A DNA stretch of 64,000 bases from an uncultured Dehalococcoidia bacterium (GTDB taxonomy: Bacteria; Chloroflexota; Dehalococcoidia; Lucifugimonadales; Australimonadaceae), in assembly GCA_964560025.1 (NCBI GenBank), contig CAZLKC010000005.1, positions 41,102-105,101 on the forward strand, in the 5' to 3' direction. This document shows, piece by piece, positions 5,248-8,593 of the stretch. The translations under genes were made by a program, and so were the position numbers. Within the stretch, counting starts at the first letter, position 1. Each line of letters begins with the position of its first letter. The notes under the pieces were generated by a model, which was not told where the DNA came from, searched no databases, and saw only the letters and a list, made by a program, of their open reading frames with translations.

Positions 5248-5907
5248 CTAGTTCTTCCCGAAATCCGGCTTCCACGACTTGCTCGACGGCCTGCGCCTCA
5301 TATAGTCGAGGATGTCGCGCAACAGCGAGCGCTCCTGCTCCAGCCGCTGCGCCGTCGCCGCCTCCAAGAGACGCTGCTGCTCCTCCTTGTCGCCGGAGAG
5401 GAAGTCTGCCAAGAAGAAGGACAGCGCAGTGGGGTCGCCGGGAAGGCGGGTGGTTCGCATCCAGCCGCCACGCCGGGCGGCGAGGCCCTGGATGAGGCGG
5501 CCTCCCATATCCCGCACCTCGTCGACAAGGCCGGGGTCGACGGCCGGCTCGTCCGGCAAATCGTCGAGGAACTGCGCCTCGGCGGAGAGGTACGGGTGGC
5601 TGTAGTCGTAGGACTCTACGCGGAAGCGTCGTTCGCCCGTAACAACCAGGCGCAGTCGATCGTCCGGCGTCTGGCGAAAGCTGGTAATGCGAGCGGTCGT
5701 GCCCACGTCGAAGGGGACGGCGCCGGGGTCGCCCGCCTCCTGTCCTTCGCGCAACAGCAGCACGCCGAAGGGTTCTCCCGCGTCCATGCACTCGCGCGTC
5801 AACTGCCGGTAGCGCTCCTCGAACACGACCAGCGGCAACTCCACGCCAGGAAAGAGCACAACCGCCTGGAGTGGAAAGAGGCGCAGCCACATAGGGGGAT
5901 AGTACAC
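5248..5907 (-). CDS. LON N-terminal (substrate-binding) domain protein
   Basis: LFPLQAVVLFPGVELPLVVFEERY is typical of the Lon N-domain. The start may instead be the ATG at 5892. Confidence 0.8.
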   Translation of the reverse strand: MYYPPMWLRLFPLQAVVLFPGVELPLVVFEERYRQLTRECMDAGEPFGVLLLREGQEAGDPGAVPFDVGTTARITSFRQTPDDRLRLVVTGERRFRVESYDYSHPYLSAEAQFLDDLPDEPAVDPGLVDEVRDMGGRLIQGLAARRGGWMRTTRLPGDPTALSFFLADFLSGDKEEQQRLLEAATAQRLEQERSLLRDILDYMRRRPSSKSWKPDFGKN

Positions 5908-5938
5908 GAGCGCGCAGGGCAGGGGAGTGCAGAGGGGG

Positions 5939-6346
5939 CTACGCTACCGTCCACACGTGCGGATAGCGAACAATCTTGCGGTCGGAAGTCACCAGCGAGG
6001 ATTGGTGCACTCTCGCGGTGGCGACGATTATCTGATCGGCCGGGTCTCGATGGAATCTGCCTGGCAGGCCGGCCGACTCCAGGGCGATATCGGGCGTCAG
6101 CTCCAAGATGGCGACGCCTGGGTATCTGAGCGCCAGGCGGAACCACTCGGGCAGATCGACCGGCAATTCCAATCGTTCGTACTCGCACAGCTTGGCGATC
6201 TCCCAGCAGGAGATGGCGCTGACGCCGATGCGATCGCCCTCGTTGGCGGCGATCGCCCGGCGCTGCGTTTCGCTCAGCCGCGCCGGGTCGATCGTCCACC
6301 AGATCCAGGCGTGAGTGTCCAGAACGATCACGGGCGCGTCTCCCAT
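5939..6346 (-). CDS. vapC: PIN-domain ribonuclease, VapC-type toxin
   Basis: VIVLDTHAWIWW…AISCWEI…HRDPADQIIVATAR…LVTSD is the PIN acidic-residue pattern. The start is either ATG 6346 (19-nt overlap with the upstream ORF) or GTG 6331 (GTGA overlap with its stop). Confidence 0.85.
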   Translation of the reverse strand: MGDAPVIVLDTHAWIWWTIDPARLSETQRRAIAANEGDRIGVSAISCWEIAKLCEYERLELPVDLPEWFRLALRYPGVAILELTPDIALESAGLPGRFHRDPADQIIVATARVHQSSLVTSDRKIVRYPHVWTVA

Positions 6347-7236
6347 TCGTCCATGGCCACCGCGTCGTACGGGCGGTCGTAGCGGTACGGCTCGCCTCGC
6401 AGCGGGTAACGGGCATCCTCCGGGGGCGCCTGCTTCACCGCCCAGGTCGGCTGAGGCTCCAGCGTGAAGTGTTGCCCGTGCTTCAGCATGTAGATGCGGG
6501 GGCTCGCTCCATTGACGTCTACGACGCGATACATAACGGCTTCCTCCTCTAGCAGCATGTCATGCGACCTGCTGCCCGACACCTGCAACTGCCCCCACGC
6601 GATGGTGGAGGCGTCCGTGCCTTGCACTTCTATCTGCTCGGTCTGTCCGTCCACCTCGACTTTGAGGTCATAACCCCCAGGCCCTTCCTCAACTTTCGCC
6701 CGGCCGGCGTGCGCGTCCGCGAGGTAGGAGCGGACGATGTGCACGGCCTTTAGCTCCGTGCTGAGGCCGTCCATAGCCTGGCGCTCCGCGTCGGTGAGGG
6801 CGACGGAAACCGACGGGTAGCGGCTCGGCCCCGCAACCGCCTGCTCCGCGCGGCTGGGCAGGTTGTAGGCCGCCATACTCTCCGAAGCAGCTTGGCCCGG
6901 CCGGTTATGGGCTAGCCGCAACTCATCGGCGCGACGCGCGGCTCGAGCCGCCTCCACCTCCTGGATCTCCGCGTCATCCTCCGGATCGGCGACGAGCCGA
7001 AACAGGCCTCGGCCCACGCGCCACGCCTTCGGCGCCGCACCCTTCTTGACGAAGTCGCCCATCCCGTCTCCGTCCCTTGAGATACTGGAGTTGAAGGGAT
7101 TGACGGTGATGGTGCTCGGCTTGAATGCTCCTGCGAGACGCCCGCGGAGGTCGCCGACCCTCCAATCGCGGGGAATCAAGCCTTGCTCCCGCAACGCGTA
7201 GACGGCCTCCCAGAACGTAGACCCTGCTCCGGTCAT
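6328..7236 (-). CDS. Uncharacterised 302-aa protein: winged-helix-like N-terminus, helical linker, PD-(D/E)xK / DUF3883-like C-terminal module (EVQ in place of EVK). It occupies the antitoxin position upstream of the PIN gene.
   Basis: Good RBS (AAAGGAGG) before the ATG at 7236. Motifs are AWRVGRGLFRL and GGYDLKVEVDGQTEQIEVQGT…VMYRVVDV. It is coupled to the downstream PIN gene. Confidence 0.75.
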   Translation of the reverse strand: MTGAGSTFWEAVYALREQGLIPRDWRVGDLRGRLAGAFKPSTITVNPFNSSISRDGDGMGDFVKKGAAPKAWRVGRGLFRLVADPEDDAEIQEVEAARAARRADELRLAHNRPGQAASESMAAYNLPSRAEQAVAGPSRYPSVSVALTDAERQAMDGLSTELKAVHIVRSYLADAHAGRAKVEEGPGGYDLKVEVDGQTEQIEVQGTDASTIAWGQLQVSGSRSHDMLLEEEAVMYRVVDVNGASPRIYMLKHGQHFTLEPQPTWAVKQAPPEDARYPLRGEPYRYDRPYDAVAMDEWETRP

Positions 7237-7276
7237 AGCAAAGCCTCCTTTGCCCAGTAAAGTTTACCTGTACAGT

Positions 7277-7304
7277 ACTATACTATACTGAATGCTCTTG
7301 TCAA
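7277..7304 (-). promoter_or_regulatory. Putative sigma-70-type promoter (TTGACA-16 nt-TATAGT) with overlapping TATAG tandem repeats
   Basis: The reverse strand reads TTGACAAGAGCATTCAGTATAGTATAGTACTGTA. It lies in an AT-rich gap about 40 nt upstream of the 302-aa ORF. Confidence 0.45.
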
Positions 7305-7412
7305 GTAGCGCTCCGTCGCTACACGAGCGGCCTGCGGGTGGCTAGCGGGGGCACGGCGCGTTGGGATGAGGACAGGGGGGATTGGGGCAGCGAAGGCGAA
7401 GGGGCGTGCTGG

Positions 7413-8282
7413 CTAAATCTTCTCGAACCAGCCCTCGTCAATCTCGATCGACTCGACCATTTCCACTTTCACCCCCAATTCCAACTCCTTCAACTTACCC
7501 ACCAGGGCCTCACCATCAATTAAGTCGATAGGAGGAGCGCCGTCCCGAGTTGCCTCCTCCTGCGCCGCTCTTGTGAAATTGCCCGTCGTTACGATGAGGC
7601 CCTTGTCCGCACGCCCCTGCATGGCTCCCCGAAAGTCGCGCACGACGCCGGCCGGCACGCTGCCGGCATAGCGCTTGCACTGGAAGAGCACGGGGAAGCT
7701 CACGAGCCCGTTCAGGCGGAGGATGGCCGTGCCGTCGATGCCGCCGTCCCCAGACCGGCCTGTGACATTCACTTGGTAGAATTCAGATTCGCGCAGCATA
7801 ACCTGGCACAGCCGCTCAAAGGCGCCATGCTCCATCTGCTTTACAATGTGTACTAGCCGCTCCCTCCACGCTTCGATCCCTTCAACATCGCCGGTGTCCG
7901 GCTCAAGGGAGTCGTCCGTTGGTGTTTCGGCCTTGCGCTGTTCTCTGCGAGCGGAGTTCCGCTCTCGGAAGAAAGCATCAACCTTCTTCGGGTCGACCTT
8001 AGCGGTGCGCCGCCCCTTTTCTGTCAATGACCACGTTCCGCGAGTGAGGTTGTCGATGACCCCGTATGTCTTTAGGCAGGTTCTCGCCCAAGCGAGTTCG
8101 TAGTCCAGTTCTGTCTGGGGACCTCCGCCGTGGAGTTGCTCGACGATTTCGTCGGAAAAGCCCTCAGCGCGGATTACCTCTCGCAAGATTTCTTCCCTGG
8201 ACGCGATGCCTCCCAAGGCATTGAGGGCATCCAGAGTCGGGTTCATCAATTGTACGCGAGTAGGGAAACCTCCTACTACCAT
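7413..8282 (-). CDS. mrr: Mrr-family type IV (modification-dependent) restriction endonuclease
   Basis: Mrr_N winged helix (…NLTRGTWSLTEKG) plus the Mrr catalytic core (GDGGIDG…VLFQCKRY…GLIVTTGNFT). GC content is visibly lower than in the flanks. Confidence 0.9.
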   Translation of the reverse strand: MVVGGFPTRVQLMNPTLDALNALGGIASREEILREVIRAEGFSDEIVEQLHGGGPQTELDYELAWARTCLKTYGVIDNLTRGTWSLTEKGRRTAKVDPKKVDAFFRERNSARREQRKAETPTDDSLEPDTGDVEGIEAWRERLVHIVKQMEHGAFERLCQVMLRESEFYQVNVTGRSGDGGIDGTAILRLNGLVSFPVLFQCKRYAGSVPAGVVRDFRGAMQGRADKGLIVTTGNFTRAAQEEATRDGAPPIDLIDGEALVGKLKELELGVKVEMVESIEIDEGWFEKI

Positions 8283-8383: not shown

Positions 8384-8460
8384 TGGCCCGCCCGGCGGGA
8401 TTCGAACCCACGACACCTGGTTCCGAAGACCAGTGCTCTGTTCCACTGAGCTACGGGCGG
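8384..8460 (-). tRNA. tRNA-Arg (anticodon TCG)
   Basis: Hand-folded 77-nt cloverleaf: CCGCCCG/TA/GCTC…GAGC/A/CTGGT-CTTCGGA-ACCAG/GTGTC/GTGGG-TTCGAAT-CCCGC/CGGGCGG-G-CCA. The CCA end is encoded. Confidence 0.85.
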
Positions 8461-8516: not shown

Positions 8517-8593
8517 TGGGGTGAGCGGAGGGAATTGAACCCTCGATCTCCAGGGCCACAACCTGGCGTCTTAACCCCTCGACCACGCCCACC
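8517..8593 (-). tRNA. tRNA-His (anticodon GTG) with encoded G-1
   Basis: GGTGGGCGTGGTCGAGGGGTTAAGACGCCAGGTTGTGGCCCTGGAGATCGAGGGTTCAATTCCCTCCGCTCACCCCA. The anticodon loop is TTGTGGC, and the extra 5' G pairs with C73. Confidence 0.9.

Follow-up and report, generated by a model that had tools for sequence, protein, structure and literature searches.

What a protein of 302 amino acids (aa) does in the position normally held by a small antitoxin is the question raised by a locus in a 64,000-nucleotide (nt) stretch of an uncultured Dehalococcoidia bacterium (GenBank assembly GCA_964560025.1, contig CAZLKC010000005.1, positions 41,102 to 105,101, hereafter the window), in which an open reading frame (ORF) of this length precedes and overlaps a gene for a VapC-type PIN protein. 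A preliminary description of the locus had proposed a possible new toxin-antitoxin (TA) or defence architecture. The explanation favoured here, with a probability of about 0.7, is a VapBC-type type II TA cassette with a chimeric antitoxin, an identification that would rest on the homology of both the PIN protein and the C-terminal tail of its partner (coordinates in Table 1).

The downstream ORF matches the Pfam PIN model (E = 6.9e-18), and its acidic residues D5, E44, D96 and D117 (numbered from the GTG start) are invariant across 22 orthologues. A single-sequence search with the PIN protein gave no match, and no solved structure of this PIN subfamily was found, the closest being VapC 7by2, a partial match (E = 7e-4). 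Relatives of the window PIN occur in 416 records of annotated plasmids; among those listed, the annotated ones are named 'type II toxin-antitoxin system VapC family toxin', and the proteobacterial ones adjoin annotated Phd/YefM antitoxins. The earlier view that this PIN subgroup is usually paired with a Phd/YefM antitoxin of ~80 aa thus holds as far as the proteobacterial relatives.

Both start codons proposed for the PIN gene, ATG 6346 and GTG 6331, exist in the window. The latter is favoured as the likely start because in 37 of 40 related loci the PIN gene begins within a 4-nt (A/G/T)TGA overlap with the stop codon of the antitoxin gene, because a conserved TGGGAG, formed by Trp-Glu codons, lies 8-13 nt upstream of this NTGA junction in nearly all loci, and because a start at the -16 position is often missing among them. 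ATG 6346 was set aside on this comparison. The TGGGAG word inside the antitoxin tail would then serve as the ribosome-binding site of the PIN gene. The placing of the 302-aa protein in the antitoxin slot of a VapC-type toxin is accordingly borne out by the PIN match, the NTGA coupling and the tail described below.

Homologues of the 302-aa protein form 111 clusters, most of which are full-length (97-100% coverage, 44-90% identity); the named ones are Chloroflexota, mostly Chloroflexota/Dehalococcoidia, and a genome scan added further Dehalococcoidia genomes. The protein itself gave nothing significant in Pfam, NCBIfam or PADLOC scans, and a PDB sequence search with it returned noise only. An AlphaFold model built on a 61-sequence alignment divides it into four regions, namely a confident N-domain (residues 8-111), a disordered linker (113-137) whose length and sequence differ across the family, a confident C-domain (142-269) and a low-confidence tail (270-302). 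By homology and modelling it appears to be a chimeric antitoxin of three modules: the N-domain, a NOV_C-type domain and the tail.

The tail comprises ~30 aa with the consensus YPLRGxPYRYDxPYxxVAxxEWE, and no solved structure of it was found. A search with its profile gives at least 2,131 clusters; of the 120 best, almost all are ~70-aa 'hypothetical proteins' without a Pfam domain. A tail-only profile scores the window protein at 54 bits, a short Nostoc antitoxin at 58 bits and a Sulfuricella Phd/YefM antitoxin at 38 bits, the last from a profile built without that sequence. Pfam recognises a Phd head in residues 6-38 of the Sulfuricella antitoxin (E = 3.6e-6), which is encoded on pSCD and has the C-terminal end ...LRGSVIRYEKPTDPVGENDWEAAQ; the Nostoc protein, a 'hypothetical protein' upstream of VapC on pNe_1, is of a short beta-rich form with the same tail; and both overlap the VapC start by 4 nt. 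The preliminary description had mentioned an 'acidic/aromatic tail' and missed its significance, since this segment is a conserved module common to a Phd/YefM antitoxin and at least 2,100 clusters. These data agree with the earlier idea that a nuclease-fold domain has been joined to an antitoxin, the antitoxin function most likely residing in the tail.

The genome scan found ~45 loci in which the 302-aa protein is matched in part or for the most part, and ~25 further loci, in other phyla (among them Acidobacteriota, Planctomycetota, Cyanobacteria, Anaerolineae and Deltaproteobacteria-like metagenome-assembled genomes), in which the match is limited to the last ~30 residues. Whether a PIN gene follows such homologues, a question posed in the preliminary description, could be answered at the 72 loci with enough downstream sequence: a PIN gene of the window subfamily lies directly downstream in 62 of them, in all architectures and in several phyla. 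The loci without one are decayed or orphaned copies, together with L048, in which a NOV_C protein ends exactly where the tail would start and no PIN gene is present.

The architectures range from a short beta-rich head plus tail (~70 aa; L054, L058, L061, L063-66, L068, L074 and L075), the commonest form carrying the tail, and other short heads plus tail (~70-87 aa; L062, L071, L067 and L070), through NOV_C plus tail (~170 aa; L035, L037, L038 and L040-42), N-domain plus tail (142 aa; L044) and N-domain, truncated NOV_C and tail (241 aa; L047), to the N-domain, NOV_C and tail (~300 aa) of the window and its family. In P0111, two tandem N-domains and a diverged tail precede a PIN protein 49% identical to that of the window, and this tandem form, the N-domain-plus-tail form (L044) and the NOV_C-plus-tail form (L035, L038 and L040-42) each lie upstream of a PIN gene. 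The tail is thus the constant element that travels with this VapC subfamily, the head being interchangeable. Because it co-occurs with the PIN subfamily across differing heads, the tail is read as most likely the part that binds and neutralises the toxin, like the corresponding segment of other VapB and Phd antitoxins, and its low predicted local distance difference test score (pLDDT) in the monomer model fits a segment that folds on binding.

Several individual loci depart from this layout. At L053 (5713-6989), from a Caldilineaceae genome, a short antitoxin with the same tail is followed, in the place of the PIN gene, by an unannotated ORF of 307 aa; its overlap with the antitoxin stop is 19 nt, and it may be a toxin swap on the same tail. 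At L059 (5407-6081), the tail motif (...YPLRGQPYRYDKPFDSVAEKDWNALK) forms the end of a Nudix-like ORF that has no PIN gene after it and is probably the remnant of a decayed cassette fused in frame. The antitoxin gene is interrupted or frameshifted in L021 (a 97-aa open frame), L034 (tail lost through a frameshift) and L046, with the PIN frame retained, and these may be decaying cassettes or assembly errors. At L077 (913-2672), an AAA_15/AAA_21 ATPase gene and then a DUF4276 gene adjoin a tandem-N-domain antitoxin/PIN pair, a two-gene arrangement that resembles ATPase-nuclease defence pairs.

The distribution of the cassette also bears on whether it is a TA module at all. The PIN protein could instead be a housekeeping RNase, with the 302-aa protein as a substrate-targeting or regulatory partner, and the cassette in the window is indeed chromosomal, of host guanine-plus-cytosine (GC) content and syntenic with tRNA-Arg and a LonN gene in the locus L001. 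In other genomes, however, the cassette lies in unrelated contexts, homologous PIN genes are widespread on plasmids and annotated as VapC beside Phd/YefM antitoxins, and decayed and orphan copies exist, which is typical of selfish TA cassettes, making a housekeeping pair the least credible of the explanations considered.

The C-domain of the predicted chimeric antitoxin is of the NOV_C type. Among the 61 family members, 39 match PF13020 (NOV_C, formerly DUF3883; best E = 8.8e-8); the window protein does not match it at E <= 1, and the membership of the window copy would rest on homology to the members that do match. The DUF3883/restriction-endonuclease-fold layout recognised in the preliminary description is therefore real at the level of the family. 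In the model, residues 142-269 are confidently predicted with the element order alpha-beta-beta-beta-alpha-beta, which is restriction-endonuclease-like, and the top PDB matches in Foldseek are MGME1, Hjc, RecU/PrfA, I-Ssp6803I and a splicing endonuclease (best E = 0.018, none <= 1e-3). PD-(D/E)xK nucleases, one of the two folds suggested earlier for the protein, head the structural matches of the C-domain; the other, the winged helix, is discussed with the N-domain below.

The catalytic motif of the domain is conserved unevenly. In the alignment, the family consensus is D...E-V-K, in the layout GADL...IEVKGT on consecutive strands, and the corresponding residues in the window are D190 (6669-6667), E203 (6630-6628) and Q205 (6624-6622), so that the reported Gln at the position of the catalytic Lys is confirmed and the D...(D/E)-x-K triad is incomplete (D-E-Q). 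D-E-K is found in 44 of the 61 fused members (72%) and D-E-Q in four, which make up the lineage of the window; several others are degenerate, and five ~170-aa NOV_C-plus-tail forms have clearly degenerate motifs (IRVNGT, IQVSGT). Elsewhere, the NOV_C-like domain occurs in standalone proteins of ~135-150 aa and in fusions to DUF7662, and the motif of the standalone relatives has invariant D, K, G and T, with the E conserved in at least 90%. The triad being kept in 72% of fused members and fixed in the standalone relatives, catalytic constraint was relaxed after fusion. The relaxed motif, together with the conservation of the domain, argues for a non-catalytic role in the antitoxin, for example binding or dimerisation. 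The closest standalone relatives (P0270, P0296, P0300, P0304, P0315, P0356 and P0250-P0254), which are often fused to DUF7662 at either end, appear to be an uncharacterised small nuclease family.

These patterns weigh on the second possibility raised in the preliminary description, a two-nuclease effector pair in which the 302-aa protein is an active DNase beside the PIN RNase and not primarily an antitoxin. Such a pair would agree with the complete D...ExK triad of the 44 members, with the catalytically competent look of the standalone relatives and with the real nucleases among the best fold matches, but Gln replaces Lys in the window copy and the relatives nearest to it, and several lineages, including the five ~170-aa forms, have degenerate motifs yet retain the domain, the tail and the PIN gene. 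The tail is moreover common to bona fide small antitoxins without a nuclease domain, and the gene order and 4-nt coupling are typical of an antitoxin-toxin pair. With the triad relaxed in the fused family and fixed in the standalone relatives, two cooperating nucleases are not supported and seem very unlikely.

The N-domain is predicted to consist of a helix, a helix-turn-helix-like pair (27-34, 40-49), a beta-hairpin (71-81) and a long helix (89-111). The segment AWRVGRGLFRL, conserved in the family as AWRVGRGxFxL, forms the hairpin in the model (strands 71-75 and 78-81) after two helices. It had been taken for the wing of a winged helix, and the order of three helices and a hairpin is compatible with this fold, but the assignment lacks statistical support: Foldseek against the PDB gave nothing significant for the N-domain (best E = 2.8), with Zalpha and FOXN3 among the non-significant matches only, and a winged-helix reading of the model is unproven. 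Matches to haemagglutinin stems were rejected as a product of the long helix. The likeness claimed between this region and the N-domain of the neighbouring Mrr protein did not hold either, hhalign finding no profile similarity between them (probability 0.1%).

In an exhaustive profile search of 1.84 billion representatives, the N-domain and the NOV_C-like domain were each found independently of the other. The N-domain occurs elsewhere at either end of 300-360-aa proteins whose remaining parts are unannotated. In P0253/P0262 and P0259/P0266, it is joined to two different unannotated helical domains, lying N- or C-terminal to them in permuted order, which suggests a promiscuous adaptor or DNA-binding module in Chloroflexota.

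The near-consensus promoter that had been reported upstream of the two overlapping genes is present as claimed and is the sole sigma-70-like match within 5700-7500, where 0.2 would be expected by chance; the TTGACA word lies upstream of 10 of 21 non-redundant orthologous loci. Two palindromes overlap or follow this promoter, the first of which, GTATAGTACTGTAC, is 90% complementary and spans the -10 box and the predicted start site. GTA/TAC words are over-represented in the promoter region of the window (z = 4.0), TGTAC is found in 33% of orthologous upstream regions versus 4% of AT-rich control windows, and the orthologous regions are richer in TTGACA, TGTAC and TGTAAT words. From these features, an operator role of the promoter-overlapping palindromes is inferred. 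A single GTA/TAC-repeat operator for every locus was considered and dropped as weakly supported (mean z = 1.2). The NOV_C-plus-tail loci (L035, L037, L038 and L040-L042) have in common a GGTAAT(A/G)TTACC palindrome ~60-80 nt upstream of their ~170-aa genes, a candidate operator of the form without an N-domain, although these loci are related and the conservation may be phylogenetic.

The favoured TA cassette would operate as follows. One promoter serves both genes, giving a bicistronic mRNA in which the PIN gene is translationally coupled through the GTGA overlap, as the sequence and the related loci show. The last ~30 residues of the 302-aa protein would bind and block the PIN RNase, as their co-occurrence suggests. 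In classic antitoxins, the head dimerises and binds the operator. The N-domain and NOV_C domain would occupy the slot of this small dimerising DNA-binding head, supplying dimerisation and operator binding at the promoter palindromes and hence autoregulation, and the nuclease chemistry of NOV_C would be dispensable here, with Gln in place of the catalytic Lys. Autoregulation through these modules is put forward as a hypothesis, because the word enrichment is modest. Once the antitoxin is degraded or displaced, the PIN toxin would cleave RNA and arrest growth, on the pattern of characterised VapC toxins. There is a published precedent for multidomain antitoxins in which a small added element does the neutralising (PMC10440598).

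The genes around the cassette in the window include an Mrr type IV restriction endonuclease, which sits between tRNA-Arg and the cassette. The GC content of the Mrr segment is 0.58-0.61, versus 0.65-0.69 in its surroundings, and none of the 75 other loci has an Mrr gene. The closest relative, L001 (66% identity), has tRNA-Arg(TCG) immediately before the antitoxin gene, and Mrr does not separate the two. Mrr appears to be a separate insertion at the tRNA and was rejected as a component of the system. Directly 3' of the PIN gene, on the same strand, lies a gene for a 219-aa protein containing only LON_substr_bdg (5248-5907), syntenic in L001 and in no other locus, and a tie between this protein and antitoxin turnover would be pure speculation.

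In 28 other genomes, a crude survey of 112 neighbouring ORFs found mixed, mostly housekeeping genes with sporadic matches to defence models, and no conserved defence neighbours. No relatives were found on IMG/VR viral contigs, and the 302-aa and PIN proteins gave one weak match in PADLOC-DB, to the C-terminus of TmtA (Tiamat; E = 0.021). A defence-island context was ruled out on the neighbour survey and the lack of relatives on viral contigs; an enrichment of homologues in defence islands, raised as a question in the preliminary description, did not appear among the 28 loci, and the possible new defence architecture proposed there is not supported. The flanking genes vary and are mostly housekeeping, which is what an autonomous TA cassette would lead one to expect. 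What is conserved is thus the pair of genes, and its behaviour is that of an ordinary mobile TA module.

The same evidence bears on a third alternative, in which the antitoxin is a sensor of an immune system: the NOV_C domain, perhaps with or replaced by the N-domain, would detect a trigger such as a phage protein or nucleic acid that is foreign, modified or damaged, the tail would be released or destabilised, and the PIN toxin would fire in abortive infection. Sensor roles have been suggested for the accessory globular domains of multidomain antitoxins (PMC10440598); modification-dependent restriction enzymes have DUF3883 as their catalytic domain, which also occurs in defence contexts (PMC6765204); and the weak TmtA match and the Mrr gene adjoining the cassette in the window point in the same direction. 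Neither protein, however, has a PADLOC match at a meaningful E-value, the 28 other loci are without conserved defence neighbours, Mrr is missing from the 75 other loci and the closest relative and differs in GC content, relatives are absent from viral contigs, and the window copy has lost the catalytic Lys. It is because most members keep D-E-K that a sensor or effector role retains some standing, and a ligand or nucleic-acid sensor gating VapC release, in a family whose D-E-K antitoxins may also be active DNases, is accordingly judged unlikely, though less so than the two other alternatives. If true, it would constitute a TA-derived immune or stress switch in Dehalococcoidia, with a restriction-enzyme domain recruited as the trigger receptor.

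Four points weigh against the chimeric VapBC antitoxin as proposed. The complete D-E-K triad kept by most fused members indicates that nuclease activity may be important across much of the family, a point left unexplained if the modules are purely a 'DNA-binding head'. The N-domain has no significant structural neighbour in the PDB, and its DNA binding is a prediction. The enrichment of operator words is modest across loci and partly compositional. Finally, the toxicity of the PIN protein, its neutralisation and its contact with the tail are predictions, drawn from analogy and co-occurrence.

Table 1. Features of the cassette and its upstream neighbours in the window, with positions counted from the first nucleotide of the window.
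Feature	Position	Strand	Details
Sigma-70-like promoter, TTGACA-16-TATAGT	7277..7304	(-)	11/12 consensus positions; upstream of the bicistronic operon
Candidate operator region	7257..7283	(-)	14-nt near-palindrome GTATAGTACTGTAC (7283-7270), then GTAAA-C-TTTAC palindrome (7267-7257)
302-aa predicted chimeric antitoxin gene	6328..7236	(-)	ATG 7236, stop TGA 6330-6328, Shine-Dalgarno AAGGAGG 7250-7244
N-domain, aa 8-111	6904..7215	(-)	modelled alone, AlphaFold pLDDT 93.2
Disordered Ala/Arg/Glu/Pro-rich linker, aa 112-138	6823..6903	(-)	pLDDT 27-41 in the full model
NOV_C/DUF3883-type PD-(D/E)xK-fold domain, aa 139-270	6427..6822	(-)	family-level PF13020 matches
C-terminal tail, aa 271-302, ending ...RYPLRGEPYRYDRPYDAVAMDEWETRP	6331..6426	(-)	putative PIN-binding, neutralising element; pLDDT ~50 in the model
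Internal Shine-Dalgarno GGGAG for the PIN gene	6340..6344	(-)	formed by the conserved Trp-Glu codons of the tail
VapC-type PIN toxin gene	5939..6331	(-)	130 aa from GTG 6331; GTGA overlap with the antitoxin stop
Mrr type IV restriction endonuclease	7413-8282	(-)	complete; Mrr_N + Mrr_cat; PADLOC mREase_IV
tRNA-Arg(TCG)	8384-8460	(-)	just upstream of Mrr; adjacency to the cassette kept in L001
tRNA-His(GTG)	8517-8592	(-)	just upstream of Mrr

The cassette family offers a natural dissection of an antitoxin, in which one ~30-aa tail and one VapC subfamily are combined with at least five exchangeable heads (Phd/YefM, beta-rich, helical, the new N-domain and NOV_C). Neither the tail nor the ~70-aa family that most often carries it (at least 2,100 clusters) is covered by a Pfam or NCBIfam model or a solved structure, and genome annotation therefore misses many VapC antitoxins. 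The N-domain, with its confident model, lack of a structural neighbour and promiscuous fusions in Chloroflexota, is a candidate new domain family. Since its catalytic constraint relaxed after fusion, the restriction-endonuclease-fold domain within the antitoxin lends itself to studying how a nuclease is exapted for binding or regulation, and the literature searched for DUF3883 with antitoxin or PIN held no description of such a domain in an antitoxin or of such a linkage.

Comparison with known systems places the module among them by its PIN protein and tail, and apart from them by its head. The closest counterpart is the Phd/YefM-VapC pair of Sulfuricella denitrificans pSCD (WP_009207776/WP_009207777), in which the VapC protein is of the same subfamily (~45% identical), the gene order and 4-nt start/stop overlap are as in the window, and the antitoxin tail motif, LRGxxxRYxxPxxPVxxxDWE, is homologous to the window tail. 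The Sulfuricella antitoxin has a ~40-aa Phd/YefM head, whereas the window antitoxin lacks one and has instead a ~105-aa uncharacterised domain, a disordered linker and a ~130-aa NOV_C/PD-(D/E)xK domain, making it about four times longer. The ~70-aa antitoxins, such as that of Nostoc edaphicum pNe_1 (WP_181927037), likewise have the tail, PIN partner and overlap of the window, but they carry a ~35-aa beta-rich head without a Pfam or NCBIfam match and, unlike the window protein, no nuclease-fold domain.

In the multidomain PanA (Panacea) antitoxins of the NetFlax network, neutralisation falls to a small appended element (Phd-C, PAD1 or ZBD), and a sensor role has been proposed for the globular Panacea domain (PMC10440598). 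The concept is the same as in the window, but the likeness is one of analogy only, as the globular domains here are NOV_C and the new N-domain, with no sequence or fold relation to Panacea/DUF4065. DUF3883 is also described as a restriction endonuclease catalytic domain in restriction and defence proteins (PMC3710099; PMC6765204). The NOV_C/DUF3883 proteins, which include YenY4I/McaZI-type enzymes, SNF2-DUF3883 fusions and the C-terminus of Tiamat TmtA, share their domain family, by hidden Markov model, with most members of the window family, and the D...ExK layout is common to both. Unlike in those proteins, the domain in the window is joined to an antitoxin tail, in a protein whose gene is coupled to a PIN gene, its catalytic residues are relaxed, and it has no helicase, ATPase or modification-reader partner.

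The customary heads of VapBC antitoxins (AbrB/SpoVT, ribbon-helix-helix, Phd/YefM or helix-turn-helix) have no Pfam or NCBIfam match in the window antitoxin, and it is because a recognised small DNA-binding head is missing that the module is classed as a VapBC variant. It is of a known kind, a VapBC TA system, with a new architecture in which the N-domain and NOV_C domain stand in place of the usual head.

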